A stretch of 53,245 nt of DNA from Thermodesulfovibrionales bacterium (GCA_963715195.1 CAVQRT010000033.1:1-53245), one strand, 5' to 3'. Shown: positions 9,084 to 50,354, numbered from the stretch's first letter. Notes: a model not told the origin generated them from the sequence alone. Numbers and translations are program-made.

Positions 9084-9117
9084 ATCCTCCTCGCTATAAC
9101 AGGAATCTTCTGTTCGC

Positions 9118-11808
9118 TCATATATTTATGAATTCCTCTTTTGTCCTTGAGATTACTTCAATGGCCCCAGTCGGGCAGACGCTGACACATTCGCCACACC
9201 TCACACATACGTTCTTTCTGATCTCGAAGGGCAGAAAGCCCTCGGACGGTTCGGCTGTCTTACCCTCAACGGCGTCGTATTTGCACCTCTTTTTGCAGGC
9301 ACCGCACGCTATGCACAAGTCCGGGTTTACCACATACTCTATGGAGCTGATGCATTCCCTCTTCGGACAGATGCCAGAGAGGTGGACCCTGAATTCTTCC
9401 GGTGAAGATTCAAGCAGTTCAGCGAGGAACCTGCCTGTATCTCTTCCTTTTTTGCAGTACGAGCCTTCAATCATATAAAACGCGATTCTCCTGAGCGCCT
9501 CAATGTCGGATTCATCGGCATCATCAAGATGCTGACTCAGTCTGATCAATCTGATCTTGGCTTCTTCTGTTCCCAGTGAGCATGGATAGCATCTGCTGCA
9601 CATCGGCCCTGCGATGAACTCCTCAACAAAGGTGAGGGCCCTCTGAACGGCACAGGCCTTTTCTTCAGCGTCTTTCCGTATTTCATCGACCGTTATGTCT
9701 TCGATTAACTCTTCTTGTGCGGCAAGCGACGGGACCTCGGGAACAATCCCTTTCCTGAGAAGCTTTGTCTCCTTTTCAAATTTTATAGCTCCCATCGGGC
9801 ATACCCTGAAACAATCACCGCATTTCTTGCAGAGAGTGCTGTCGACCATAAAACCCGTTGAAGTCTCTTTAATGGCATCAACCCGGCAGATATTGATGCA
9901 ATTTCTGCAAAAATAGCAGAGTTCTTTATCGATAAATACTACCGGCTGTTCATGGATCTCGATTGCACCGAGGGGACAGACCGCGAAGCAGGCCTTGCAT
10001 CTCTGACAGCGAACCTGATCGACATAAAACAGGCCTTCTTCCGATTCCCTGATCGCTTCATACGGACAGATGTCCATACACCGTTTGCATTGATAACAGA
10101 TATCAGCATTGATCAGTACCTGTCCAAGACCCTGGCAGACAAAAGCCCTGCAGTATTTGTCTCTCACGTGTTCTTCGTACTCGTCACGGAAATACTGAAT
10201 TGTCGTCAGAACAGGATTGGGTGCGCTTTTGCCGAGGCCGCAGAGGGAACTGTTTTTAACATACCGCCCCAGCTTTTCGAGCCTCTCGATGTCGCCTTCT
10301 TCCCCATGGCCCGAGGTTATTTTCTCAAGGATCTGCAGCATCTGATATGTTCCAATCCTACAGGGATAACATTTTCCGCACGACTCTGCCTGGCAAAAAG
10401 AGAGGAAAAATTTTGCTATATCGACTATGCAAGTATCTTCATCCATTACGACCATGCCGCCGGAACCCATGATCGAACCGATTTTAGCAAGAGAGTCAAA
10501 ATCGATCGGGAGATCAAGAAATTGTTCCGGGATGCACCCGCCGGACGGACCGCCCGTTTGGACCGCCTTAAATTTCTTATTGCCGATGATCCCTCCTCCG
10601 ATATCAAAAATGATCTCCCGCAGGGTTATTCCCATTGGAACTTCAACCAGTCCGGTATTATTCACCTTCCCGGTCAATGCAAAGACCTTTGTACCGGGTG
10701 AGGATGCCGTCCCTGTCTTCAAAAACCATGCGGCTCCTTTTTCAATGATCGGTGGCACACATACATAGGTCTCTATATTGTTCAGATTCGCGGGATACCC
10801 CCATGGCCCGCCTCCATGTTCAGATAGCCTGGGAGGTCTTGGACTCGGGAATCCGCGTTCACCCTCTAGGGAAGCAACAAGCGCCGTAGATTCACCGCAT
10901 ACAAAGGCGCCCGCACCTTCCCTCACCTGTACGGTAAAATTAAAACCCGTGCCCAGAATATCTTTCCCCAGAAGGCCCAAATCGCGGGCCTGGTCAATTG
11001 CAATCCGCAAATGCTTGACGGCGAGCGGATACTCGTGACGTACGTAAATAATCCCTTTTTGTGCGCCGATCGCATATGCGCAGATCATCATCCCCTCGAG
11101 AAGGCTGTGGGGATCACCCTCCATAATCGACCGGTCCATGAATGCACCGGGATCGCCCTCATCACCATTAGCTATAACCAATTTAACCGGATCGGGTGCT
11201 TTCATGGTATGTTCCCATTTCACTCCAGCCGGGAATCCTGCACCGCCCCTTCCCCGCAGGTTGGCTGCTTTTACCTCTGAGAGAACCTGCTGGGGGGTCA
11301 TTTTCGAAAGTGCTTTTTCCAGAGCCCTGTATCCCCCGACTGCAAGTGAATGGAGGATGTTCGCAGGATCAATCCTTCCGTTATTCCTCAGCGCAATTCT
11401 CTGCTGTTTTCGGTAAAAAGGCACATCATGAATAAAAAAAGCGGGTCTTTCTGTGAGGGAACGCCGGAAGAGGAGATCCCAAAGCGGTTTCTGGTTTATG
11501 GAGGTACGGAATACAACGTCCTCTGCTCTTTCGGGCCTCACCTTCTGATAGAAATAACCCTGAGGTTCTACCGTCATAACCGGACCCAGCTGACATAAGC
11601 CCTGACATCCGGTAGTGACAATTTCTATATCCGCCTTGTTTCTCTTCACCTCCGCATGGAGTTCATCGACCAATCGGATCGAATTATTGGCCCTGCACGC
11701 GGTACCACAGCAGACCTTTATTCGCTTCTTGTCAGGGGCTAAGACCCCCTCACTGGAAAGTTTCTTGCGGAGGGCGGCAAGGTCTTCAAAACTTTTTACT
11801 TTTTTCAT
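9118..11808 (-). CDS. NuoF/HydB-like NAD(P)H-FMN subunit with extra ferredoxin domains and a duplicated FeS module
   Basis: Thioredoxin-like [2Fe-2S] (CCGTAC...CQGLC), LRGRGGAGFP, GDEGDPGAFMDR, GGPSGG and ESCGKCYPC. Six ferredoxin-type Cys motifs and a second CSRCYPC...SYC module. Confidence 0.88.
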   Translation of the reverse strand: MKKVKSFEDLAALRKKLSSEGVLAPDKKRIKVCCGTACRANNSIRLVDELHAEVKRNKADIEIVTTGCQGLCQLGPVMTVEPQGYFYQKVRPERAEDVVFRTSINQKPLWDLLFRRSLTERPAFFIHDVPFYRKQQRIALRNNGRIDPANILHSLAVGGYRALEKALSKMTPQQVLSEVKAANLRGRGGAGFPAGVKWEHTMKAPDPVKLVIANGDEGDPGAFMDRSIMEGDPHSLLEGMMICAYAIGAQKGIIYVRHEYPLAVKHLRIAIDQARDLGLLGKDILGTGFNFTVQVREGAGAFVCGESTALVASLEGERGFPSPRPPRLSEHGGGPWGYPANLNNIETYVCVPPIIEKGAAWFLKTGTASSPGTKVFALTGKVNNTGLVEVPMGITLREIIFDIGGGIIGNKKFKAVQTGGPSGGCIPEQFLDLPIDFDSLAKIGSIMGSGGMVVMDEDTCIVDIAKFFLSFCQAESCGKCYPCRIGTYQMLQILEKITSGHGEEGDIERLEKLGRYVKNSSLCGLGKSAPNPVLTTIQYFRDEYEEHVRDKYCRAFVCQGLGQVLINADICYQCKRCMDICPYEAIRESEEGLFYVDQVRCQRCKACFAVCPLGAIEIHEQPVVFIDKELCYFCRNCINICRVDAIKETSTGFMVDSTLCKKCGDCFRVCPMGAIKFEKETKLLRKGIVPEVPSLAAQEELIEDITVDEIRKDAEEKACAVQRALTFVEEFIAGPMCSRCYPCSLGTEEAKIRLIRLSQHLDDADESDIEALRRIAFYMIEGSYCKKGRDTGRFLAELLESSPEEFRVHLSGICPKRECISSIEYVVNPDLCIACGACKKRCKYDAVEGKTAEPSEGFLPFEIRKNVCVRCGECVSVCPTGAIEVISRTKEEFINI

Positions 11809-11863
11809 GCCTTAATGACCTTTCGGTTTTCTATAAGCCTGACGTCCTGCTTCTGCAAGACGT

Positions 11864-12352
11864 CTATGCTTCTCTGAGTGAAAGAATCAGATTTTCTACC
11901 TTCCTGCTTCCGGTGATTTCACCCACGACAGCATCATTCACGGTTGCAACAGGGGCAAGTCCGCAGCAACCGACGCACCCTACGGTTTCCAATGTTAGAG
12001 CAAGGTCCCCGGTGGTTTCTCCGTTCTTGATATCAAATGCATTTTCCATGGCATCAAGAACCTTCTTCGAACCGCGAACGTAACAGGCTGTGCCAAGGCA
12101 TACCTTCACAATCTTTTTCCCCCGCGGCTTGAAATAGAACATTTTATAAAAACTTGCCACGCTGAATATCTCGGATAGGGAAAGATTGAGATGCCTTGCG
12201 AGTTCTTCGACCTCATTTTCAGGCAGGTAACCGGAATCCTCCTGGATCTGCTGCAGGGCTTGCACCAAGATCCCCTTCTTTTTTTCCTGATCGGTCAGGA
12301 GGTCACCGATCTCCCCTATTTGCTCATCGACCAGTATCGTTTCTATCTGCAT
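11864..12352 (-). CDS. NuoE/HydC-like [2Fe-2S] subunit
   Basis: VASFY, VCLGTACYVRG and CVGCCGLAP. Confidence 0.9.
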   Translation of the reverse strand: MQIETILVDEQIGEIGDLLTDQEKKKGILVQALQQIQEDSGYLPENEVEELARHLNLSLSEIFSVASFYKMFYFKPRGKKIVKVCLGTACYVRGSKKVLDAMENAFDIKNGETTGDLALTLETVGCVGCCGLAPVATVNDAVVGEITGSRKVENLILSLREA

Positions 12353-35410: not shown

Positions 35411-36838
35411 TCAGAAGCCTTTGACGGCTGCCTTCGCAAACTCGACAAGTGCTGTCGGGAAAACACCAATAATAAGCACTGCTGCAGTCGTTACTGCAAG
35501 CACAACACCGCTCGAAAACGATGTGGTGAGTGTTACCGTCGTCTTCGGATCCCGCATGTACATGTACATGACGATCCTCAGGTAGAAGTATGCAGATATT
35601 GCGCTGAAGAGAACGGCTACAATAACAAGCCAGGTATACCCTGCATTGATCGCTGCCATGAAGATGTATAATTTCCCGATGAATCCGGCAGTCGGAGGAA
35701 TTCCGGTAAGGGAGAACATGAAAATAAGCATGAGCGCTGCAGCCAGCGGATGGGTCTTTGCAAGCCCTTCATAATCGTATATGCTGTCTCCCCTGAAGCC
35801 CTCACTCCTGAGCATGACAATGACCGCAAACGCCCCGATGTTCATGAATGCGTAAATCATCAGGTAATTCATCATGCTTGCAAGCCCTTCATTGTTTGCA
35901 ACAATAATACCCAGCAGTGCATATCCTGCATGAGCAATCGATGAGTATGCAAGCATTCTCTTGATATTGGTTTGGGAGAGCGCAACAATATTTCCGACCG
36001 CCATGGTGAGGATCGAGAGTGGAATCAGGATGGCAACCCAGTCAACCTTAACCGATGCAAATGCCACGAGGAAGACTCTTCCGAGAACCGCAAACCCTGC
36101 TGCTTTCGGGCCCACGGACATAAAGGCGGTAATAGAAGTAGGCGCACCTTCATAAACGTCTGGTGCCCACATATGGAACGGTGCTGCGGCAATTTTGAAT
36201 CCGAACGCTACCGTCAGGAAGATGACCGAGAGGAGGAGAGACAAATTATCAGAGAGTCCTCTTTCACCAATGAAAGAGGCGATCGCCTTCAGATCGGTAG
36301 TACCGGTCAGGCCGTATACCAGTGAAATGCCATAAAGCAGGAAGCCTGATGAGAATGCCCCCAGCAGAAAATATTTCATGGCTGCTTCATTCGATTTTAC
36401 ATCCTGTCTGATAAAACCGGCAAGGATATAGGTGCTGAGGGCCATCAGCTCGAGACCGAGATACAGAACGATCAGATCTCCGGCAGACGCCATAATCATC
36501 ATCCCGATCGTCGAAAAGAGGATCAGGCCGTAGTATTCACCGTAATTCACCCGTTCGACTGAAATATATTTTATGGATATCAGAATGGTCAAAATCACAT
36601 TGATGAAAAAAATGAGTTTAAAAAATGTACTGTAGCCGTCAGAAATAAACATCGTCCCGAAGGTTTCACCGCGCGGTCCGAGGAGCGATAATCCCACAAG
36701 AGCAACTCCCGCCATGCTGATAACCGCCATAACTTCCTTTTTTTTCACAAAAAGGTCGACCAGAATGACAATGAGAGCCAGAGCCGTCATCATGAGTTCG
36801 GGCCTCATCGGGATAAGATCAGGGAGCTGGAAATTCAT
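35411..36838 (-). CDS. nuoN: NADH-quinone oxidoreductase subunit N
   Basis: EAAMKYF, FKIAAAPFHMWAPDVYEGAP and KRMLAYSSIAH. Confidence 0.95.
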   Translation of the reverse strand: MNFQLPDLIPMRPELMMTALALIVILVDLFVKKKEVMAVISMAGVALVGLSLLGPRGETFGTMFISDGYSTFFKLIFFINVILTILISIKYISVERVNYGEYYGLILFSTIGMMIMASAGDLIVLYLGLELMALSTYILAGFIRQDVKSNEAAMKYFLLGAFSSGFLLYGISLVYGLTGTTDLKAIASFIGERGLSDNLSLLLSVIFLTVAFGFKIAAAPFHMWAPDVYEGAPTSITAFMSVGPKAAGFAVLGRVFLVAFASVKVDWVAILIPLSILTMAVGNIVALSQTNIKRMLAYSSIAHAGYALLGIIVANNEGLASMMNYLMIYAFMNIGAFAVIVMLRSEGFRGDSIYDYEGLAKTHPLAAALMLIFMFSLTGIPPTAGFIGKLYIFMAAINAGYTWLVIVAVLFSAISAYFYLRIVMYMYMRDPKTTVTLTTSFSSGVVLAVTTAAVLIIGVFPTALVEFAKAAVKGF

Positions 36839-38376
36839 CGGATTACCTCCATGATGGCTTTTGCTGCAGCAGCCTCCTGCATACCGGCCGAAGAAACCCT
36901 CTCCAGAAGGTGCGCGACTGTAACGTGCATGAAGCTGAGGAATGCATTCGGATAAACCCCGATCCAGAGAACCAGGATGATAAGTGGGATAAGGGTAATA
37001 GCTTCCCTGATATCCATATCAGGCAGGCCAGCCACTTTTGGATTGACTTCCATGAAGAATATCCGCTGGTAGAGCCAGAGCATGTACCCTGCACCGATAA
37101 TAATTCCCGTGCTTGCAAGAACACCGGCGAGCTTGCTCTTGGTAAATCCTCCCAGAAGAATCAGGAATTCACCGATGAACCCGTTTGTAGCCGGAAGCCC
37201 TACGGCTGCGAGCGTAAATACCATAAAGAATGCAGCATAGATAGGCATAACGGTAGCCAGCCCTCCATAGTCTGCGATCTTCCTTGTATGGGTCCTGTCA
37301 TACACGATACCGACAGACAGGAAGAGCGCACCGGTAACAATACCATGATTGATCATCTGGAGAATTCCGCCCTCCAGCCCCTGGGTGTTCAGGGCAAAAA
37401 TTCCGAGTGTCACAAATCCCATGTGACTTACGGAACTATATGCGATAAGTCTCTTCAGGTCAGTTTGAGCAAGGCATATGACCGCGCCGTAAATAATCGC
37501 TATGACCGAGAGCGTTAACATGACAGGGGTCATTGCCTTTGCTGCTTCGGGGAAGAGCGGGAGGGAAAATCTCAGAAAACCGTAAGCGCCCATCTTGATG
37601 AGAATTGCTGCAAGGATAACACTACCTGCTGTCGGGGCTTCGGTATGTGCGTCAGGAAGCCAGGTATGGACAGGCCACATCGGGACTTTCACAGCAAATG
37701 CGGCAAAGAACGCCCAGAAGAGCCACATTTGCATGGTGTAGGGATACGACCTTGTCATTAAATCAAGGATGTTAAAGGTCTTGCCTGCATAAAAGTAGAG
37801 GACGATGATGCCGACAAGCATGAGAACGCTTCCGACTAACGTGTAGAGGAAGAACTTGATCGCTGCATAAATCCTGTTCGGCCCACCCCAGACACCGATA
37901 ATGAGGAACATGGGTATAAGCATTGCTTCCCAGAAAAGATAGAAGAGGAAAAAGTCCAAAGAACAGAAAACGCCGATCATGAATGATGTCGTCAGCAGGA
38001 TCGCAATATAAAATTCTTTCACCTTCTTCGTAATCGATTCCCATGAGATGAGGACGCACAGTATCGCAGTGAGTGTTGAGAGGAGGACAAGCAAGATGCT
38101 GATGCCGTCCACCCCGATGAAATAATTGATATTCCAGTTGGGGATCCAGCTATGTAGCTCGGCATACTGCATTTTATGCGTTGTTTTGTCGAATTCCGTG
38201 AAAAGGGGAATCGATAGAAGGAATGTCGCGATGCTTGTCGCCAAAGCAATAGATTTGGTGAGGAGTTCCCATGACCTTCTCAGAATAAGGATGAGGAGGG
38301 CACCGAGCACAGGCAGAAATATGAGTGTGCTCAGAATCGGATAATTCAACTGGTTCATGATTACCTGATGTTCCAT
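36835..38376 (-). CDS. nuoM: NADH-quinone oxidoreductase subunit M
   Basis: FWEAMLIP, VKVPMWPVHTWLPDAHTEAP and KRLIAYSSVSH. Confidence 0.95.
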   Translation of the reverse strand: MEHQVIMNQLNYPILSTLIFLPVLGALLILILRRSWELLTKSIALATSIATFLLSIPLFTEFDKTTHKMQYAELHSWIPNWNINYFIGVDGISILLVLLSTLTAILCVLISWESITKKVKEFYIAILLTTSFMIGVFCSLDFFLFYLFWEAMLIPMFLIIGVWGGPNRIYAAIKFFLYTLVGSVLMLVGIIVLYFYAGKTFNILDLMTRSYPYTMQMWLFWAFFAAFAVKVPMWPVHTWLPDAHTEAPTAGSVILAAILIKMGAYGFLRFSLPLFPEAAKAMTPVMLTLSVIAIIYGAVICLAQTDLKRLIAYSSVSHMGFVTLGIFALNTQGLEGGILQMINHGIVTGALFLSVGIVYDRTHTRKIADYGGLATVMPIYAAFFMVFTLAAVGLPATNGFIGEFLILLGGFTKSKLAGVLASTGIIIGAGYMLWLYQRIFFMEVNPKVAGLPDMDIREAITLIPLIILVLWIGVYPNAFLSFMHVTVAHLLERVSSAGMQEAAAAKAIMEVIR

Positions 38377-38383
38377 CGTTCTC

Positions 38384-40353
38384 CTATTTCAGCAACAATA
38401 CCAGCGCGATTATGAAAACCGCACCGGCAGCCATAAAGATTCCATAATGCTCCACCAGCCCTGTCTGAATCTTCCGCAAACTCTGGCTGAACCTTCCTAT
38501 CGCCCCCGGTACGCCGTTGACAATTCCTTCGATCATCTTTGCATCGGTGATCGCAACAAGAATGTTTTTTGCGATCCACATCGTCGGCTTTATAATGGTA
38601 TAGTCATATAATTCGTCGATGAAATATTTATTATAAAGGATGGTATATAACCCCTTGAATGCCTTTCCGATCTTTACCGGCAAATCTGTCGTCCGCAGGT
38701 AGAGAAATGCTGCAAGCCCTAATCCGATTAATGCCAATGTCGTCGAGAGGCCCATAACGCGCCACTCCTCTGCATGGGTCCCGTGAAATTCAGGATGTCC
38801 GACTACCGGTTTGAGGAAATGGGCAAAATGTGCCCCTCCTCCAAGTATGGGCGGAATGCCGAACCATCCTGCAGCGACGGCGCCGACCGCAAGGAGCATT
38901 AAGGGTATTGTCATAACCTTTGGTGATTCATGAAAATGGTGTTCTCCATGGTGAGAACCGTGTGCACCGTGATTTCCATGTCCCTCCTGATGAACTCCGC
39001 GGTGTTTTCCGTGGAAGGTGAGGAATATGAGCCTGAATGTATAAAATGGCGTAAAGAATGCACCTGCAAGTGCGAGAATCCAGACGAATGTTCCCACAGG
39101 GGTGTGCGCCGCATAGGCAGACCAGATAATCTCGTCCTTGCTGAAGAACCCGGAAAGCCCGGGGAACCCGCCGGCACTCAGTCCGCCAAGCACGAAGACT
39201 GCATAGGTAATCGGCATATATTTTTTGAGGCCACCCATCTCCTGGATATTGTTTGTATGCACGGCATGGATTACGCTTCCGGCAGAAAGGAAGAGAAGGG
39301 CCTTAAAGAATGCATGGGTATATAGATGGAATATGCCGGCAGCATAAGCACCAACACCACATGCGAGGAACATATATCCCAAATGACTGCAGGTGGAGTA
39401 TGCGATGATTCTCTTTATATCATTCTGAACAATGGCAATCGTTGCAGCAAAAAACATCGTTAAGGCACCGATCACCGCTACGACATTCATTGCCACCTCG
39501 GAGAGGTCAAAGATCGGGCTGCAACGAGCAACGAGGAATACACCTGCGGTAACCATGGTTGCGGCATGAATCAAGGCGCTCACCGGGGTAGGACCCTCCA
39601 TTGCGTCAGGGAGCCAGACATGCAACGGGATCTGGGCCGATTTTCCGACTGCCCCGCAGAAAAGAAGGAGCGCAATAAGGGTCGGAAGGTCAACATTCCA
39701 CCCCAGGAAATTTACCCTTTGACCGATCATCATAGAGACGTTGGAGAAGACTTCAGAATAATGGAGGGTGCCAAAGGTTAAGAAGATCATGAAAACGCCG
39801 ATGCCAAATCCGAAATCTCCGAACCGGTTGACGATAAATGCCTTCTTGCCGGCATCAGCTGCTGATTTCTTGTTGAAGTAATATCCGATGAGGAAATAAG
39901 AACAGAGCCCGACGCCTTCCCATCCGAAGTAGAGCTGGAGGAAATTATTCCCCATGACCAGCATAAGCATACAGAAGGTAAAGAGGTTCAGGTACGCGAA
40001 GAACCTGTAGTAACCCGTATCGCCGTGCATATATCCGATTGCATAAATATGAATGAGAGTGGCGCACGTTGTGACAACCATGAGCATGACCGCGGTCAGC
40101 GGATCGATGAGGAATCCGACAGAAACCTTGAAGGTCCCGGACACGATCCATGAATAGAGGTCCGCATTAATTACGTTTCCCGCCAAGACATCCCGACAGG
40201 GCAAAGAGTGAGCACACCCAGGATCCTGCAACAGCAAGAACTGCAGGCCAGTGAGCATTAGACTCGGGTCACTTCTTTTCCGATCAGAATATTGATGATA
40301 AAAGCCGCCAGCGGCAGAAACGGTATCAAGATATGGTAGAATTGCAGTTCCAT
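38384..40353 (-). CDS. nuoL: NADH-quinone oxidoreductase subunit L (N-terminal frameshifts near 40260 and 40195)
   Basis: WEGVGLCS and GKSAQIPLHVWLPDAMEGPTPVSALIH. The true N-terminus MELQFYHILIPFLPLAAF starts at 40353 in another frame. Confidence 0.92.
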
Positions 40354-40407
40354 GTTAACGCATCCCTATATAGTATTCCACTGCTAAAGCTTCATCTTTC
40401 CTTGGCA

Positions 40408-40710
40408 TCATCCGTGCATCTCCTTCACATCATCCACGTGGGATGTCGCCTTGTTTCTGAATAAGGCAATGACAATCGCAAGTCCGATCGCGGCTTCGGC
40501 AGCAGCAACAGCTATCACGAAGAACGCCAGGATCTGACCTCTCAGGTCCTGAAGGTAATGACTCATGGCGATGAGATTAATGTTGACCGCGTTCAGCATC
40601 AACTCAATGGACATGAACATGAGGATGATATTCCTCCTCGACAGGAATCCAAAGACTCCGATCGAAAAGACAATGATGCTGAGCACCATATACCAGCTTA
40701 ACGGAACCAT
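40408..40710 (-). CDS. nuoK: NADH-quinone oxidoreductase subunit K
   Basis: SIELMLNAVN and AAAEAAIGLA. Confidence 0.96.
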   Translation of the reverse strand: MVPLSWYMVLSIIVFSIGVFGFLSRRNIILMFMSIELMLNAVNINLIAMSHYLQDLRGQILAFFVIAVAAAEAAIGLAIVIALFRNKATSHVDDVKEMHG

Positions 40711-41222
40711 TACCCTTTCAGCCTCCTTTTCGCGAGGACGATTGCCCCGATGATCGCAACGAGAAGTATCAATGAAGCCACTTCAAAGGGATAGAGAAAT
40801 TCCGTATACAGTATCTTCCCCAAGACTATCGTATGCGTTTCCTGCTGTATGAGATCAACCGTGTAGATGCCGGGCGGAGCTGCGATAAACGATCGTATCG
40901 ACATGAGAACAACAACCAGGAGTGCAACTGCAAAGGTAAAGCCTGTTGCCCCGGCGCCGATATATTTGCCGATTTTCAGTTCTTCCCGGATATTCACCAA
41001 GAGCACAGCAAAGAGGAACAGAACCAGGATACCCCCTGCGTATACAATAACCTGGACAGCAGCCAGAAACTCCGCATTGAGAAAGAGGTACAAGCTTGCG
41101 ATATGGAAAAACAGCAGGAGCATCCAGGCAACACTGTGAATCGGGTTCCTTCTCGTGACAACGAGGAGCGAGAGAACCGTAATCGCAAATGCAAAATACC
41201 CGAAAAATGCCTGTTGGATCAT
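40710..41222 (-). CDS. nuoJ: NADH-quinone oxidoreductase subunit J
   Basis: NPIHS, AEFLAAVQVIVYAGGILVLFLF and PFEVASLILL. Confidence 0.95.
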   Translation of the reverse strand: MIQQAFFGYFAFAITVLSLLVVTRRNPIHSVAWMLLLFFHIASLYLFLNAEFLAAVQVIVYAGGILVLFLFAVLLVNIREELKIGKYIGAGATGFTFAVALLVVVLMSIRSFIAAPPGIYTVDLIQQETHTIVLGKILYTEFLYPFEVASLILLVAIIGAIVLAKRRLKG

Positions 41223-41762
41223 GAGCCTTTCCTCCGGGAGACTGCCTGGCCCGGCGGGGTACCGAAATCCTCGGACATCGGCCGCCAGAATTTGCGTAAA
41301 TATTCTTCACCCTTTTTGCCAGGCATGTATTTATCCCAGCTTTCCAGGAGCCTGTCTTTTTTGAGGAGCAGGTCCTCCTTCCGGTATGCGGAATATTCAT
41401 AATTTTCCGTGAGCACAATTGCACCGTAAGGACATGCCTCAACACAGAATCCGCAATAGATGCACCGCAGGATGTCGACCTCGTACTTTTCTACCTGTCC
41501 CTTTGCGCGCGACAATGCTTATGCATTGGGACGGGCAGATCGTTGCACAGAGTCCGCAGCCGACGCACTTGGCCTTGCCCTGGCTTTTTGCAAGGGCATG
41601 CTGCCCTCTGAAGCCAGGAGCTATATGCCTTCTTTCCTTGGGATACTGAATCGTAACAGCATGGGAAAACATCTTCCGGAGGGTCAGGGCCATACCCTGG
41701 AATATCTCGATAAAGGTAAACCTTTTTACGATGTTCCGAACTGTCACTTTCCATTCCCTCAT
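41219..41762 (-). CDS. nuoI: NADH-quinone oxidoreductase subunit I (frameshift near 41505)
   Basis: TIQYP...FRG and CVGCGLCATICP in one frame; RCIYCGFCVEACP in the next. Confidence 0.9.
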
Positions 41763-41764
41763 GG

Positions 41765-42811
41765 TTATATGATGAGTTTTACTAAACCCGTTATGAGAAT
41801 ATTTGCCAGTGCTATCGGGATAAGTATCTTCCAGCCGATTTTCATAAGCTGGTCATACCGGTACCTCGGTACTGTTGCCCTGATCCAGTAATAGAAAAAG
41901 ATAAATGCGTAGACTTTTATCAGATACCAGACAATACCGGGCACAAGGTTCAGGAATGGCAGTACCTTTGTCACATACCATGGCAATGTCCATCCCCCGA
42001 GGAAACATACCGCTGCGATTGAGGCCATAATGAACATCGCGATATACTCGCCGAGAAAAAAGAGGGCAAATCTGAACCCGCTGTATTCGGTAAAGTATCC
42101 TGCGACCAGTTCGCTCTCTGCCTCGGGCAGATCGAACGGTGTCCTGTTGGTCTCGGCAACAGCTGAAATCGTAAAGACAATAAAAGCCACAAACTGTGGT
42201 ATCGCGTATACCCCAAAAATCGATGCCTGCTGGGCCCTCACAATATCAGAAAGGTTCAATGAACCGGTAAGGATCATAACGCCGACAAGGCTAAGGCCCA
42301 TCGCAATCTCGTAGCTGAGCACCTGGGCAGATGAACGCAAACCGCCGATAAAGGCATATTTTGAATTGGAAGCCCATCCGGCAAGGAATATCCCGTATAC
42401 CCCGACGCCAGCGATGGCGAAAAGAAACAGAAGTCCGACATTCAGATCTGCGATGACAAAGTTTTCCGAATACGGAATGACCGATAAATTCACCATGGCA
42501 GATGCCATGAAAATGACAGGAGCCAGATAGAACATGGCCTTATCCGCTTGAGCCGGGATAATATCCTCCTTGAAGAATAACTTCAGTCCGTCGGCAAAAG
42601 GCTGCAAAAGTCCATGCGGCCCTACCCTCATGGGGCCAAGCCTAACTTGCATATGCCCAATGACTTTCCGTTCGAAATATGTTGCATATGCAACATGGAG
42701 CAATCCAACGGCGAGAACAACCACAATCTTAAGAACAATGATAAGCACATTGATCCCGAATGCTATTAATCCGTCAAGCATTTCAGGTGATATGATATTC
42801 CCGACATTCAT
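41765..42811 (-). CDS. nuoH: NADH-quinone oxidoreductase subunit H
   Basis: ERKVIGHMQVRLGP, GLLQPFADGLK, ETNRTPFDLPEAE and PRYRYDQLM. Confidence 0.96.
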   Translation of the reverse strand: MNVGNIISPEMLDGLIAFGINVLIIVLKIVVVLAVGLLHVAYATYFERKVIGHMQVRLGPMRVGPHGLLQPFADGLKLFFKEDIIPAQADKAMFYLAPVIFMASAMVNLSVIPYSENFVIADLNVGLLFLFAIAGVGVYGIFLAGWASNSKYAFIGGLRSSAQVLSYEIAMGLSLVGVMILTGSLNLSDIVRAQQASIFGVYAIPQFVAFIVFTISAVAETNRTPFDLPEAESELVAGYFTEYSGFRFALFFLGEYIAMFIMASIAAVCFLGGWTLPWYVTKVLPFLNLVPGIVWYLIKVYAFIFFYYWIRATVPRYRYDQLMKIGWKILIPIALANILITGLVKLII

Positions 42812-42813
42812 GG

Positions 42814-44286
42814 TTATCTGTCACATTCTCCGAGAACGATATCGATCGTACCGATTGCTGCGATGACGTCAGCAACCAGGTGGCCCGCACAGAGCCTTGG
42901 CAGACAGCCGGCATGTATAAATGACGGGGCCCTCACTCTCATCCGGTAAGGCTTCCCTGTCCCGTCGCTCACGAAATAAAAACCGAGTTCCCCTTTCGGA
43001 ACCTCGGTCGCAACATAAATCTCACCTTCGGGGGCTTTCGGGCCTTTCTTGACGAATTCGAACTGCCTGACAAGATACTCTCCGGCTTTTTTTATGTCGT
43101 CTGGTAGTTCATTCGGAGCAACCGCGAGTTCCGCAAGTTTTTCATCGCTCAACCCTTTCCCGCCGGGCACAATCGTCAGGGCCTTGAATTTGCAGGTAGC
43201 GTAGCAGGTTGCGCAACTAACGCAGAGCTCCTGTTTAATTGTATGGGGTACTTTCTTTTGCCCAACAATTGCCTTTGCAGGGCAAGCCCTCAGGCACATG
43301 CCGCATGCCTTACATGCCTTTTCGAGAATAAAATATGCGTGCTGTTTTGTCGGATGCGTAATGGCCATCATTTTGTCCTTGGGCTGCATCGTAAATTTCG
43401 GTTCATCCGCCATTACGGGGCCTGCCGGCAACTTTTCGATACACTGCCTGATAATGTTGTTCGACTGCCTCATTTCCAGCATTCTGCACCGGTATCTGTC
43501 ATAGGTATCGCCCTCTGTTCCGATCGGCACATCGAATTCAACTTTATCGTACGCATCATAGGGTATATGCTTCCTTATATCATAGGAGACACCGGAACCT
43601 CTCAGCGTTGGACCTGTCATTCCCCAGTTTACCGCCTCTTCAGCCGAAATAACACCTATTCCCACTGTCCTTTTAAGCCAGATCCTGTTCTGGTCAATCA
43701 GGGTTTCGTACTCGAGAATCCTCGACGGGAATTCATCGGTAAACTTCCACAGGCTGTCGAGGAACTCCTGCGGGACATCGTTTCGAACTCCGCCTACTCT
43801 CGGGAAGGTGACAGTTAGCCGCGCTCCGCAGATCATCTCATAGAGATCAAGGATCCATTCCCTCTCTCTGAAGCAATAGAGAAATACGGTCATTGCACCG
43901 ATATCAAGGGCATGAGTTGCAAGCCAGAGCAAGTGGTTTGCGATCCTCGACATCTCCCCAACGATGGTTCTGATGAATTTTGCCCTCTCGGGAGCTTCTA
44001 TTCCAAACAGTTTTTCGACAGCCACACAATAGCCGATGTTATTTGACATCGCAGAGACATAGTCCATTCTGTCGGTGAGGGGGAGAGCCTGGAAATAGCT
44101 CAGACTTTCACCAAGCTTTTCAATACCCCTATGCAGGTATCCGACATATGGGGTAACGTTCACAATCGTTTCACCGTCAATATCAAGGACGAGCCGCAGA
44201 ACACCGTGGGTAGCCGGATGCTGTGGCCCCATATTGACACTGAGTTCTCTTGTCTCGAATATCTTCTCTGCTTCTTTCTGAATCAT
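42814..44286 (-). CDS. nuoD: NADH-quinone oxidoreductase subunit D with an inserted 2x[4Fe-4S] ferredoxin domain (alternative start 44304)
   Basis: [32 protein letters not shown] and DIVLGECDR. The insert carries [12 protein letters not shown] and [12 protein letters not shown]. Confidence 0.92.
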
Positions 44287-44287
44287 C

Positions 44288-44869
44288 TTATCCTGCCCAC
44301 TCAAACTCTCTCAGTTCCTTCGAACGCTTGACGACGTCAGTGAAACCGGCCCAATCCTTATCGAACTCCGGTCCTTTCAACGGATAATCTTTTCTCAGCG
44401 GATACCCTTCCCAGTCCTCCGGCATGAGGATCCTTCTGAGGTCGGGGTGACCGACAAAGTTAATTCCGAACATATCGTAGCATTCCCGTTCATGCCAGTT
44501 TGCACCAGCCCATACGGATACAACAGAGTCGATCTTCGGATCGTTTTCAGGTACCTGAGCCCGAATTCTGATTCTGTGACGGTATCTGATCGAATAGATG
44601 TTATACACCACTTCGAACCGTATCTCTTTTTTCTTGATGTAATCGACTGCGGTGAGATCCTGAAGATGATCGAAACTAAGCAGCGGGTCATCATGAAGAA
44701 ACCTGAGAATCGCGACAATCTGATCCCTCTTTATAATTACAGAGACCTGATCTCTGGATTCAACGACTTCAATTACCTGGTCGGGAAATTTCCCCTTTAT
44801 TGTCTCCGCTATATCAATTGGTGCAAGTCCTGAGGGCTCTAAGGTAAGCCTTACTTCCGTTACCGCCAT
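44288..44869 (-). CDS. nuoC: NADH-quinone oxidoreductase subunit C
   Basis: [32 protein letters not shown] and [11 protein letters not shown] 44869 follows SD GGTGGAG. Confidence 0.94.
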
Positions 44870-45381
44870 GGACTCCACCTCGCACGTTCTTTTCGAATCT
44901 TTTCCTGGAGCATCATCATACCTTCGAGCAGGGTCTCTGGCCTCGGGGGACATCCCGGCACATAGACATCGACCGGCAGGAAAGTTTCGCATCCCTGAAC
45001 GGTGCTGTAGGTTTTAAATACACCACCGGTGCATGCACAGCTTCCCATCGCCACAACATACCGTGGGTCGGGAATCTGGTCATATACCCTTCTTATCACA
45101 GGGGCCATCTTCTTCGTAACGGTGCCGGCGACGATCACACAGTCAGCCTGCCTTGGTGAGCCTCGGAAAATAATGCCAAACCGGTCGAAATCGTAATGTG
45201 ATGCGCCCACGGCCATCATCTCAATGGCGCATCAAGCGAGTCCGAAGGTCGTTGGCCAGATCGAGGATAATCTTCCCCAGTTGATGATCTTGTCGAATGT
45301 CGTAACGATGAGGTTGGGTGGTAATACCTTTACGCCTTCCTCTACTTCGACGAGACCCGTTGCAGATGTTTCGATCAACAT
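44860..45381 (-). CDS. nuoB: NADH-quinone oxidoreductase subunit B with in-frame TGA at codon 50 (probable Sec or Cys recoding)
   Basis: One frame from ATG 45381: ...[22 protein letters not shown]...SPRQAD...MGSCACTGG...PGCPPRPE. The TGA (45232-45234) replaces the first Cys of GLACCAIE. Confidence 0.88.
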
Positions 45382-45402
45382 CTCTTTCCCCCTGTAATTA
45401 GG

Positions 45403-45774
45403 TTAATCCCATTCGAAAGCTTCTTTTCTCCAGGCATAGATGTATCCGACCAGGAGTATGGCAATAAAAAGAACCATCTCGATGAATGCATAAATACCGA
45501 TCTTATCAAAAACAAGAGCCCATGGATAAATGAATATCGCTTCAACATCAAACACCACAAAAAGCATCGCGATGATGTAAAAGCGGATGGAGAATCTGTA
45601 ACGTGGCTCTCCCTTTGGGGTGATGCCCGATTCATAGGGCATGAGCTTCTCATAATATGGCTTTCTGGGTCTGAAAACGAAACCGATGAGGAGAGCGCCA
45701 AGGCCAAATACCGAGGCGATAAGGATGAAGATGAGCACCGGTAAATATTCTGATGGCAAATACGTTCCAGGCAT
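45403..45774 (-). CDS. nuoA: NADH-quinone oxidoreductase subunit A
   Basis: PYESGI and FYIIAMLFVVFDVEAIFIYPWA. Confidence 0.96.
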   Translation of the reverse strand: MPGTYLPSEYLPVLIFILIASVFGLGALLIGFVFRPRKPYYEKLMPYESGITPKGEPRYRFSIRFYIIAMLFVVFDVEAIFIYPWALVFDKIGIYAFIEMVLFIAILLVGYIYAWRKEAFEWD

Positions 45775-45784
45775 AAGCGGTTAT

Positions 45785-45814
45785 GTTATACTGAAAAGCC
45801 TTAATGCTTGTCAA
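45785..45814 (-). promoter_or_regulatory. Sigma-70 promoter of the nuo operon
   Basis: Minus strand TTGACA-18-TATAAC, ending 10 nt before the nuoA ATG. Confidence 0.6.
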
Positions 45815-45850
45815 GCAAAAAAATTGTTGTTCTCTTGGGAGGAGATTTGC

Positions 45851-48127
45851 ATGTATAAGATCCTGAGGAAGGAAGTGCTTTCCGATTTCGTAATCCTGTT
45901 CGAGATAGAAGCCCCCGAGATCGCAAAAAAGGCAAAGGCAGGGAATTTCTTTGTGCTCAGGATACATGAACAGGGAGAGCGGATTCCGTTAACGATAGCT
46001 GATTTCGATAGGGAAAGAGGGACGATAACGACGGTCTTTCAGAAAGTCGGCAAGACAACAAACCACCTGGCGACGTTGAAGGAGGGTGACTTCCTTACTG
46101 ACGTGGCCGGCCCCCTCGGCATGCCTTCTCACATCAAACATTTCGGGAAGGTCGTCTGTGTAGGGGGCGGCGTCGGGATAGCACCCGTTTATCCGATAGC
46201 ACGTTCATTAAAAGAGGCAGGCAACACCGTTATTTCGATTATAGGGGCACGGATGAAGGAATTGATTTTCTGGGAAGAAAAAATGCGCAGCGTCTCTGAT
46301 GAACTCATCGTCACGACAGATGACGGCTCCTATGGGCGAAAAGCTGTGGTCACCGTTCCGCTTGACGAGCATCTCAAGGACCATAAAGACGTAAAACTTG
46401 TATATGCTATCGGCCCGGCCATCATGATGAAATTTGTCTGTCTCACAACAGAAAAGCACAAGGTAAAGACGATCGTCAGCCTCAACTCCATCATGGTTGA
46501 CGGGACCGGGATGTGCGGGTCATGCAGGGTGGAAGTGGGTGGAGAAACAAGATTTGCCTGTGTCGATGGCCCGGAATTTGACGGCCATCAGGTTGATTTT
46601 GATCTGCTCATGTCACGCCAGAGGATGTATATAGGCGAGGAAAAAGAAGCTATGGAACACTTTAGGGTAAAGACCGGGAGACAGGTAGTGGACGAAAAAC
46701 GCGCGAGCAGGAAGACGGAGAACAGGGTGGTAATGAGGGAGCAACCCCCGCTCGAGCGGGCGCGGAATTTCATGGAAGTTCCTTACGGTTATACACCTGA
46801 GGAAGCCATGAAAGAAGCATCGAGATGCCTGAACTGCCTGAAGCCGACCTGCAGGAACGGATGCCCTGTTTCGGTAGACATTTCTTCATTTATCAAATTG
46901 ATCAGGGAAGGCAGGTTTATCGAGGCAGCATGGAAAATCAAGGAGGAGAATGCACTTCCTGCCGTGTGCGGCAGGGTATGTCCGCAGGAGATACAGTGCG
47001 AATCCATGTGCATTCTCGGAAAGAAAGGCGATCCCGTCGCAATCGGGAATCTGGAGCGCTTTGTCTCTGATTACGAGAGGGAATCGGAAGAGATCCAGAT
47101 CCCGGATAAGCCGGCCCCATCAGGCAGAAAAATCGCGGTAATCGGTTCAGGTCCTGCTGGACTCTCCTGCGCTGCCGACCTCGCGAAATCAGGGCATCAG
47201 GTTACATTGTTCGAAGCCCTGCATAAGCCCGGCGGCGTCCTGATCTATGGAATACCGGAATTCAGACTTCCCAAGGTAATTGTCGAAAAAGAAGTTGACT
47301 ATATCAAAAAGCTCGGCGTGGAGGTCCTCGTCAATGCAGTGATCGGGAAGCTGCATACCATCGAAGAGTTATTGACCATACACCAATATGATGCATGCTT
47401 CATTGCGACAGGGGCCGGACTGCCGCTATTTCTCGGCATACCCGGTGAAAATCTCAATGGTATCTATTCCGCCAATGAATTTCTCACACGGGCGAATCTC
47501 ATGAAATCATATCTTTTCCCTGAATACGACACACCCATAAAGAGAGGGAAACATGTTGCGGTAATCGGCGGCGGGAATGTTGCAATGGATGCTGCACGGG
47601 TTGCCCTCCGTTTGGGAGCAGAGAAAGTACATCTCATATACAGACGTTCAGAAGATGAGATGCCTGCTCGCAAGGCGGAAGTCCATCACGCCCGTGAAGA
47701 AGGAATAGCATTTAACCTGCTGACGAATCCGGTCCGGTTTATCGATGACGGAAAAGGAAATGTTGCCGCTGTTGAATGTATCAGAATGGAACTGGGTGCA
47801 CCAGATGATTCCGGCAGAAGAAGGCCTGTCCCTGTTCAGGGCAGTGAATTTCAGATCACGATCGACGTTGCCATCCCCGCGCTCGGGACACGGTCAAATC
47901 CGCTCCTTATCAGAAATGTGCCGGACCTCTTACTGAACAAGAGAGGCTATATCATTGCGGACGAAAAGACAGGTATGACCTCAAAACAAGGGGTATTTGC
48001 CGGCGGAGATATCCTTACAGGATCTGCAACGGTCATTCTTGCACTAGGGGCCGGAAGAAAAGCAGCACAGGGGATTAATGATTACCTCAAATGGAAATTC
48101 TGGGATACGCGAAAATTCGTGAAATGA
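45851..48127 (+). CDS. nfnAB: Fused NfnA-NfnB (SudB-SudA / PyrK-GltD-like) NADH-dependent reduced ferredoxin:NADP+ oxidoreductase
   Basis: ATG 45851 after SD GGAGGAG. NfnA part: GERIPLTI, GGGVG and MVDGTGMCGSC...CVDGPEFDG. NfnB part: RCLNC..PTC..GCP, CGRVCPQEIQCE, GSGPAG, YGIPEFRLP, GGGNVAMD and YRRS. Confidence 0.88.
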   Translation: MYKILRKEVLSDFVILFEIEAPEIAKKAKAGNFFVLRIHEQGERIPLTIADFDRERGTITTVFQKVGKTTNHLATLKEGDFLTDVAGPLGMPSHIKHFGKVVCVGGGVGIAPVYPIARSLKEAGNTVISIIGARMKELIFWEEKMRSVSDELIVTTDDGSYGRKAVVTVPLDEHLKDHKDVKLVYAIGPAIMMKFVCLTTEKHKVKTIVSLNSIMVDGTGMCGSCRVEVGGETRFACVDGPEFDGHQVDFDLLMSRQRMYIGEEKEAMEHFRVKTGRQVVDEKRASRKTENRVVMREQPPLERARNFMEVPYGYTPEEAMKEASRCLNCLKPTCRNGCPVSVDISSFIKLIREGRFIEAAWKIKEENALPAVCGRVCPQEIQCESMCILGKKGDPVAIGNLERFVSDYERESEEIQIPDKPAPSGRKIAVIGSGPAGLSCAADLAKSGHQVTLFEALHKPGGVLIYGIPEFRLPKVIVEKEVDYIKKLGVEVLVNAVIGKLHTIEELLTIHQYDACFIATGAGLPLFLGIPGENLNGIYSANEFLTRANLMKSYLFPEYDTPIKRGKHVAVIGGGNVAMDAARVALRLGAEKVHLIYRRSEDEMPARKAEVHHAREEGIAFNLLTNPVRFIDDGKGNVAAVECIRMELGAPDDSGRRRPVPVQGSEFQITIDVAIPALGTRSNPLLIRNVPDLLLNKRGYIIADEKTGMTSKQGVFAGGDILTGSATVILALGAGRKAAQGINDYLKWKFWDTRKFVK

Positions 48128-50264: not shown

Positions 50265-50354
50265 GGAGAGGTGCCAGAGTGGTTGAATGGGACGGTCTCG
50301 AAAATCGTTGTGGGGGCAACTCCACCCAGGGTTCGAATCCCTGCCTCTCCGCCA
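50265..50354 (+). tRNA. tRNA-Ser(CGA)
   Basis: Acceptor stem GGAGAGG/CCTCTCC, anticodon arm ACGGT-CTCGAAA-ATCGT, long variable arm, GGTTCGAATCC and encoded CCA. Confidence 0.96.

Follow-up and report, generated by a model that had tools for sequence, protein, structure and literature searches.

An 11-subunit complex I operon of a Thermodesulfovibrionales bacterium (genome G000, GCA_963715195.1) encodes a NuoD subunit that carries an insert of 92 residues, and this insert, confirmed as real and under selection, is modelled as a 2x[4Fe-4S] ferredoxin-type domain on an otherwise intact NuoD. The whole stretch of DNA that was analysed, referred to below as the window, is contig C33 of this genome (CAVQRT010000033.1, 53,245 nucleotides). 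With moderate confidence, the insert is regarded as an entry relay through which electrons would pass from ferredoxin to menaquinone.

Operon organization and assembly

The window holds nuoA-B-C-D-H-I-J-K-L-M-N on the minus strand at 35411-45774, the gene set of the 11-subunit type (nuoABCDHIJKLMN present, nuoEFG missing from the operon). The features, in window coordinates, were:

45686..48127, plus strand: nfnAB-like transhydrogenase in a single frame, divergent from nuoA
45403..45774, minus strand: nuoA
44860..45381, minus strand: nuoB, read in frame through a TGA (45232-45234) where the tandem-Cys N2 ligand motif has its first Cys
44288..44872, minus strand: nuoC
42814..44304, minus strand: nuoD, 496 aa, quinone-site motifs intact and NiFe CxxC absent (TIGR01962 549.4 bits, cut-off 459.35)
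43093..43368, minus strand: NuoD insert, 92 residues (313-404), with a short linker, a 2x[4Fe-4S] core and a tail helix
43165..43338, minus strand: ferredoxin-fold core, NuoD residues 323-380, net charge about +7
41765..42811, minus strand: nuoH, starting 3 bases past the nuoD stop, nuoEFG being absent between them
41219..41762, minus strand: nuoI, split into two ORFs by one extra base; short hairpin type between the two cluster motifs
35411..41222, minus strand: nuoJ, K, L, M and N, named from sequence and position without a family scan; nuoL has two one-base assembly errors

NuoD also passed PF00346 (380.5, cut-off 24). As the first-pass annotation had stated, its quinone-site motifs are kept and the NiFe ligands are absent: GPQHPATH (His29, His33) and RMDY (Tyr82) are present, and CxxC occurs nowhere outside the insert. 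His29, His33 and Tyr82 are taken by us to be quinone-site residues. NuoD has neither the N-terminal nor the C-terminal CxxC ligands of the group 4 [NiFe]-hydrogenases, and the operon lacks the NuoE, short NuoF and NuoG orthologues of a 14-subunit NADH:quinone oxidoreductase. The best match in all of G000 to the operonic NuoF of a relative was at 47%, against 72% among true orthologues.

The apparent frameshift in nuoI is due to one extra base at 41510-41512, absent in the contigs of all four runs compared, and those in nuoL to extra bases at 40196-40197 and 40263-40264, which independent contigs do not have; both are errors of the window's assembly. Of 72 conserved genes checked in other parts of the G000 assembly, 3 likewise showed frameshifts; contamination of the genome is 6.57%. 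A decaying operon, as the nuoI and nuoL frameshifts and the nuoB stop might have indicated, was rejected because the extra bases are missing in independent contigs and the TGA recurs in relatives. Another contig (G000:C35:33000-52999, L055) carries a further nuo operon of divergent sequence, which has the insert, a Cys-type nuoB and several frameshifts and is probably contamination from a related organism.

The nfnA and nfnB genes share one reading frame at 45686-48127 (plus strand), with a start probably near 45857, and are two genes in most relatives. A tRNA-Ser(CGA) is found at 50265-50354 (plus strand). A Bfu-type cluster at 7038-12352 (minus strand) adjoins pyruvate:ferredoxin oxidoreductase-like genes; its BfuB, of 896 aa, has six CxxCxxCxxxC motifs (a polyferredoxin tail), and its BfuA, of 681 aa, lacks the formate-dehydrogenase motif.

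Sequence, conservation and fold of the insert

NuoD residues 17-312 match residues 112-407 of the 49-kDa subunit 7zm7_C, and residues 405-496 match 408-499, which places the insertion at a contiguous site. The first-pass annotation had reported about 90 extra in-frame residues at 43087-43365; the comparison with 7zm7_C, in which the two flanks adjoin, gave 92, and the span held to within a few codons, the exact limits being 43093-43368. The Complex1_49kDa domain interrupted by Fer4 that it had suggested looking for was recovered in a Pfam scan as two stretches of Complex1_49kDa and a Fer4 match (31.9 bits, cut-off 21.1); Fer4_21 scored 30.7, below its cut-off of 35. The two CxxCxxCxxxC motifs are formed by Cys331/334/337/341 and Cys361/364/367/371, and the second ends in CKF instead of CP, as in BfuB.

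At least half of the sampled words were found in 14 (estuary, sediment and seawater metagenomes) of the 24 sequencing runs listed, and contigs were compared across the window for four of the 24. One contig from run X1 (43054-43482) crosses the entire insert with 1 difference, and contigs from run X2 bridge each junction, so that sequence spanning the insert, proposed earlier as a check, was found. An RNA run (X18) contained only small pieces, in nuoK, nuoI and the 3' end of nuoD; none fell in the insert, on the expression of which the run is uninformative. The other proposed check, for the insert in related genomes, was also borne out: an insert-bearing NuoD is encoded by 43 of 57 genomes of the family (Nitrospirota, relatives in the Thermodesulfovibrionales). 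Since the X1 and X2 contigs bridge the insert and 43 family genomes carry it, it is not an assembly artefact.

In the protein collection PF00346 and Fer4 occurred together in 72 of 74 hits, and all eight Cys of the insert were kept in 72 of 72 protein clusters. The median dN/dS in the insert was 0.06 (3 of 17 pairs, those with measurable dS). This value and the retention of the eight Cys show that the insert is not there by chance. Several Lys and Arg positions are invariant across all 28 inserts compared, in each of which the core has a net charge of +6 to +8.

An AlphaFold2 model of NuoD (single chain, no clusters, 129-sequence alignment) had a pLDDT of 93.2 and a pTM of 0.91, with 10-residue blocks of the insert at 89-96; an alignment of 18 near-identical sequences gave a pLDDT of 43.5. 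The core of the model superimposed on 49-kDa subunits (Z 52.1, rmsd 2.9 A over 396 residues), and residues 323-380 on the 2x[4Fe-4S] ferredoxin 1dur_A (Z 9.8, rmsd 1.4 A over 55) and on 8zqd_A (Z 11.7, rmsd 0.8 A over 56). The PDB sequence and structure matches included no solved NuoD-like chain with such an insert. When the insert and NuoI of G002 were modelled as a complex with four 4Fe-4S clusters, the prediction returned no answer (score 0.00, mark 0.32) and is neutral on binding.

The NuoD loop that receives the insert would lie within the NuoG footprint. General support for docking of the NADH module on this face of the arm comes from E. coli (PMC8357420, in excerpt). In NDH-1L, the reported ferredoxin contacts are Lys315 and Lys321 of NdhH and Lys86/89/91 of NdhI (PMC7021789, in excerpt), and the NDH-1 ferredoxin pocket is described as the NdhI hairpin plus the C-terminal fragment of NdhH, 9.6 A from N6a (PMC6992706, in excerpt). 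NuoD 423-496 aligns at equal length with Thermosynechococcus elongatus NdhH 321-394, NdhH Lys321 corresponding to NuoD Lys423 and Lys315 to about residue 417 (NdhH 295-320 did not align with NuoD); a stretch of 13-19 residues thus separates the end of the insert from the counterparts of the NdhH ferredoxin contacts, which lie just after it and not within it. By analogy, the two parts changed here, this region of NuoD and the NuoI hairpin, would be the two walls of the NDH-1 ferredoxin pocket.

Origin of the insert

The likeness to the C-terminal domain of HydB and long NuoF that had been noted on first reading was upheld, and PDB hits, identities and trees narrowed it to nuo-linked BfuB. The PDB matches of the insert were HydB-type chains (7p5h_B 570-626 and 7t2r_B 541-594), and its closest sampled relatives were the C-terminal domains of nuo-linked BfuB (55-72% over the core). 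The homology with BfuB extends into the tail helix (54% over 74 aa; insert tail REASETELAELA). A tree of 74 columns was built for 28 inserts together with 15 BfuB domains, the latter taken only from the loci studied here; its root is uncertain, and in it the inserts formed one branch (99/100) inside the nuo-linked type (92/97). In a second domain tree the inserts, including a truncated NuoD row (L127), again formed one branch (92/100). Derivation of the insert from the C-terminal domain and tail of nuo-linked BfuB (long NuoF), the closest source sampled, is thus supported at the sequence level.

Among the 57 family genomes, 43 had the insert, 8 had the donor-type BfuB domain, 6 had neither (three of these are 60-81% complete) and none had both; that is, the donor-type domain was found in 0 of 43 insert genomes and the insert was absent in 8 of 8 donor carriers. 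An orthologue of the donor BfuA (53% or more) was present in 7 of 28 genomes tested, all insert-less. Donor-type BfuB and BfuA were not found in G000, and of the Bfu core (BfuBC with FMN, six clusters) the complex has the C-terminal domain alone.

Insert-less relatives have a sensor kinase, response regulators, often nfnAB, a receiver-fused BfuC, BfuB and a NuoG-like BfuA beside or inside the nuo operon. The donor-cluster BfuA passes TIGR01973 narrowly (471.1, cut-off 470.05) and lacks the formate-dehydrogenase Cys/Sec motif. In G254 (L146, L152) nuoD and nuoH are separated by the entire donor Bfu cluster, kinase and accessory genes included, at the site where nuoEFG normally lie, and this layout matches the Nuo-Bfu arrangement predicted in PMC9304861 (in excerpt). 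The nfnAB-like gene of the window is what is left of an ancestral divergent cluster in which the donor BfuABC was encoded as well.

The donor NuoE/BfuC is fused to a response-regulator receiver domain and lies beside a sensor kinase at L059:8751-9686, L146:12052-12984 and similar loci, a fusion and neighbourhood that suggest phosphorylation control of the bifurcating enzyme. No free-standing small ferredoxin like the insert was found among proteins of 36-118 aa by a word search requiring shared 5-residue words.

Changes that accompany the insert

The nuoD-nuoH junction lacked nuoEFG in 27 of 27 insert loci with the junction in view. The earlier description of a complex I without NuoEFG thus holds for this operon and these loci; it does not hold for the whole family, and absence of nuoEFG family-wide was rejected, since G070-G072 keep nuoEFG and have no insert. 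No orthologue of the canonical short NuoF was found in the 20 insert-bearing genomes tested; in G004 a short NuoF (48%) lies next to a second, NuoCD-type complex.

Between its cluster motifs, NuoI has a segment of 17 aa at each of the 28 insert loci (29 rows, less one duplicate with an identical hairpin) and a longer one, of 21-23 aa, at each of the 27 insert-less loci; 6 further rows had no NuoI in view. The hairpin is 5 residues shorter with the insert, and the short form was seen in none of the 27 insert-less loci; it is mostly basic, the long form acidic. The counts for the hairpin and for nuoEFG are not independent, owing to kinship, and transfers provide the repeats. Complexes that lack EFG and have no insert occur in G012, G017, G018, G023, G029 and G063, most with a Bfu cluster nearby, and the insert is therefore not required once EFG has been lost. 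In insert-less G058 a 203-aa remnant between nuoD and nuoH (L120:9694-10305) has a NuoE-like start and a NuoG-like end, and reads as another nuoEFG deletion scar.

Two insert carriers (G042, L123:7393-13695; G053, L128:7833-14120) have genes for a NuoE-like protein, a 1061-aa protein and a NuoG/Fdh-like protein, then nfnAB, divergent from nuoA.

Distribution and transfer

Loci of relatives came from Nitrospirota, Thermodesulfovibrionales, in 17 of 18 cases, the 18th matching the ferredoxin part only. The insert was found in 14 of 401 genomes sampled across the phylum, 13 from this family and 1 from another. A comparison with 1.84 billion 50%-cluster representatives placed a single member of the insert-bearing NuoD family among the best 150; in the other 149 a CxxCxxCxxxC motif occurred only in P0111. 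The ESM Atlas contained one 50-member cluster with the insert architecture, its commonest phylum being Nitrospirota. In P0111, a NuoCD fusion, the NuoC part contains a CxxCxxCxxxCP...CxxCxxCxxxCP domain; one member of its protein cluster is named as from Candidatus Altiarchaeales. Here a cluster domain was grafted onto the hydrophilic arm independently.

The insert carriers are mostly kin, so the independent events number about three, not 28. Monophyly of the carriers was neither shown nor rejected (AU test, p 0.177; the tree backbone is open). A single, vertically inherited clade of carriers is unsupported: mosaic genomes show transfer, and the p-AU is 0.177.

The insert, the short hairpin and the EFG-less junction have spread as a package by recombination. 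The other three genomes of the genus of G006 have nuoEFG, the donor cluster and the long hairpin. In G006, nuoD codons 201-290 are 94-98% identical to those of its own genus and codons 326-415 are 91-96% identical to those of another, insert-bearing genus; most windows of nuoH again resemble its own genus best, nuoI shares its 15-base gap with other insert carriers (with a weaker DNA signal for the tract, 79-80% against 72-74%), and in the nuoD-nuoH gap the first 21 codons of nuoE are joined to the last bases of nuoG. In G006, therefore, the import of the insert, the deletion of nuoEFG and the shortening of the hairpin were separate events around a native nuoH, as far as a single 8.1-kb contig from a fragmented assembly can show.

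The insert form was found in 2 of 20 genomes of family f12 (G332 and G454). The nuoB-C-D-H-I genes of G332 are 90-96% identical to insert-bearing loci and for nuoJ-K-L the identity is 91-97%, with the EFG-bearing members of its own genus; the hydrophilic arm was replaced in place. The genes of G332 and G454 came as one block, so their association reflects linkage and not separate selection.

Probable selenocysteine in NuoB

The in-frame TGA of nuoB (45232-45234) takes the place of the first Cys in the tandem-Cys motif and probably encodes a selenocysteine ligand of N2. A TGA was found in 11 of 39 nuoB rows, including the window, across several families, and also in G277. It is not tied to the insert, being present in 6 rows with the insert and 5 without. 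G000 has selenocysteine machinery (SelA, a SelB wing domain and tRNA-Sec); SelA was present in 11 of 11 TGA-bearing relatives, and a Cys-type nuoB in all 4 of 38 genomes without SelA. A hairpin after the TGA was predicted in 11 of 11 TGA rows, with Cys rows nearly equal (-7.9 against -6.7 kcal/mol, p 0.09). A term search of the main text of a 2026 review (PMC13188914, in excerpt) gave only 'NADH:ubiquinone oxidoreductase subunit E', and one of PMC12013277 gave nothing. Elsewhere in G000 (C7, L096:10089-12848), a formate dehydrogenase with an in-frame TGA at the catalytic position lies in a Bfu cluster with an Fhs-like neighbour; the BfuB of this cluster is split by a frameshift.

Comparison with known systems

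The operon shares gene set, order and lack of nuoEFG with the 11-subunit enzymes without an N-module, e.g. nuoABCDHIJKLMN of Desulfitobacterium hafniense (PMC11238625, in excerpt), for which the same source treats the electron donor as an open question and ferredoxin as proposed. Unlike these enzymes, it has a two-cluster domain in NuoD and a shortened hairpin in NuoI. Like cyanobacterial NDH-1L (6HUM/6KHI/6L7O), it has no N-module, and by analogy its altered region would be the ferredoxin site of the NdhI hairpin and NdhH C-terminus, with a basic surface. NDH-1, however, has a long hairpin, the extra subunits NdhO/S/V and no added cluster, whereas NuoD here would add two clusters covalently; NuoD scored 376.9 with the NdhH-type model NF005649 (cut-off 583), and none of NdhL/M/N/O/S/V was seen within the operon of the window.

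The insert is homologous to the B3/B4 domain of BfuB/HydB (54-72% to nuo-linked BfuB), and predicted Nuo-Bfu complexes have been reported for Nitrospirae (PMC9304861, in excerpt). Of the Bfu enzyme, the complex retains the C-terminal domain alone; as FMN, BfuC and BfuA are all missing from the operon, it cannot bifurcate. The NuoD fold and quinone-site motifs are those of canonical 14-subunit complex I (7zm7, 8qby, 7p61), from which the enzyme differs in the lack of NuoEFG and in the 92-residue insert at a position contiguous in 7zm7_C. No published description of a ferredoxin-domain insert in NuoD was found in the main texts searched, and the excerpt of PMC5812927 does not mention one; databases name the insert-bearing proteins simply NuoD.

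Proposed function and alternatives

In the entry relay favoured here, the insert would sit atop the hydrophilic arm, in the place that a docked NADH or Bfu head takes in other complexes, and the NuoI hairpin may have been shortened to make room for it. Its basic surface would bind acidic reduced ferredoxin, as proposed for the same domain in HydB; electrons would pass from the insert clusters to N6a, N6b, N2 and menaquinone, and their flow would drive proton pumping through NuoHAJKLMN. An electron port is supported indirectly: EFG loss and hairpin shortening co-occur with the insert and recur after transfer, and the insert is placed beside the residues matching the ferredoxin contacts of NDH-1. 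The loss of NuoEFG and the shortened NuoI loop together with the insert suggest a built-in socket for electrons from ferredoxin. The corresponding clusters of the HydB C-terminal domain, B3/B4, have been called 'prime candidates' for ferredoxin transfer (PMC8880783, in excerpt). Reported potentials are about -500 mV for ferredoxin and -74 mV for menaquinone, and transfer from NADH to menaquinone is reported to be too weak for four protons (PMC9304861, in excerpt). Ferredoxin has about twice the driving force of NADH toward menaquinone, which is a possible reason for the repeated import.

G000 encodes acidic ferredoxin-like ORFs (net charges -8 and -7), its acidic ferredoxins being at C2:68474 and C30:69310, two PF02621 menaquinone-pathway genes and RnfC; a pyruvate:ferredoxin oxidoreductase-like gene set is found in the window, and CODH/ACS-like and Fhs-like genes and four Bfu-type clusters in the genome (the names of all these sets were read from sequence, those in the genome partly profile-checked). 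Several points count against the relay. The insert and the short hairpin are both basic, and so do not complement each other electrostatically; the mapped NdhH contacts are outside the insert; EFG-less complexes occur without it; the independent events number only about three, and in G332 and G454 the genes came as one block; and the Bfu-type clusters, RnfC and the modules beside nuoA in G024, G042 and G053 are other partners or ferredoxin sinks.

The same relay could dock a soluble enzyme directly instead of free ferredoxin: NfnAB, a NuoF-like protein without its own C-terminal domain, or pyruvate:ferredoxin oxidoreductase. We regard this as unlikely, even though nfnAB is the divergent neighbour of nuoA here and at 15 of 19 other insert loci compared, G000 has a 548-aa BfuB-like protein without ferredoxin motifs, and a docking-platform role has been proposed for 11-subunit enzymes (PMC11238625, in excerpt). 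The nfnAB link is ancestral, being present in insert-less G012, G018, G058, G071 and G439, and it is not universal, nfnAB not lying beside nuoA in the insert carriers G008, G022, G057 and G332; NfnAB as a dedicated partner is weakened on both counts. BfuB-like matches ending near residue 537-540 occur, moreover, in insert-bearing and insert-less genomes alike.

Co-occurrence with EFG loss and hairpin shortening would be explained equally well by a structural cap that fills the NuoG footprint, shielding N6a or blocking the NuoG-like BfuA proteins that G000 encodes, its clusters being off-path or redox-sensing. Off-path cluster N7 is a known case, and so are lineage-specific insertions that stabilize the arm, such as the G-loop of E. 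coli NuoG (PMC8357420, in excerpt). A cap nevertheless seems distinctly unlikely, given the eight Cys kept in every cluster and the invariant Lys and Arg; alone it would leave the enzyme without an input and the repeated import unexplained.

An exit port, in which the proton-motive force would drive a reversed complex from menaquinol to ferredoxin for CO2 fixation, receives little credence. A typical proton-motive force is 150-180 mV. By our calculation, moving two electrons from -74 mV to about -500 mV costs about 0.85 eV, more than four protons provide at that force, and G000 has other sources of reduced ferredoxin (Bfu clusters, Nfn and RnfC). On the other side, the CODH/ACS-like and Fhs-like genes of G000, so named from sequence, need reduced ferredoxin, and the domain of the donor enzyme has been proposed to deliver electrons to ferredoxin (PMC8880783, in excerpt).

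An assembly chimera or neutral passenger, for which the one-base errors in nuoI and nuoL, the contamination and the second, frameshifted nuo copy on C35 might speak, can practically be dismissed, being contradicted by the independent contig across the insert, the 43 family genomes and the dN/dS of about 0.06 where measurable.

Implications

Extending the ferredoxin entry relay, we put forward more tentatively, as a reading slightly more open to doubt than to belief, that the insert and the short hairpin are a portable ferredoxin-input module from a bifurcating Bfu head. Spread by recombination, the module would have turned an NADH- or Bfu-driven complex I into a self-contained ferredoxin:menaquinone proton pump wired by five clusters (the two of the insert, N6a, N6b and N2), of which N2 would have a selenocysteine ligand here and in several other genomes; such a ligand would be a second departure from the textbook wire. 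The candidate electron input is fused into a core subunit and is thus testable through one domain. Natural controls are offered by relatives that are EFG-headed (G070-G072, G439), Bfu-headed (G254, G012, G018) or insert-bearing, and the mosaics with a deletion scar give a rare view of complex I switching its input module. The carriers are uncultured sediment bacteria, in which the graft coincides with loss of the NADH-oxidising head.
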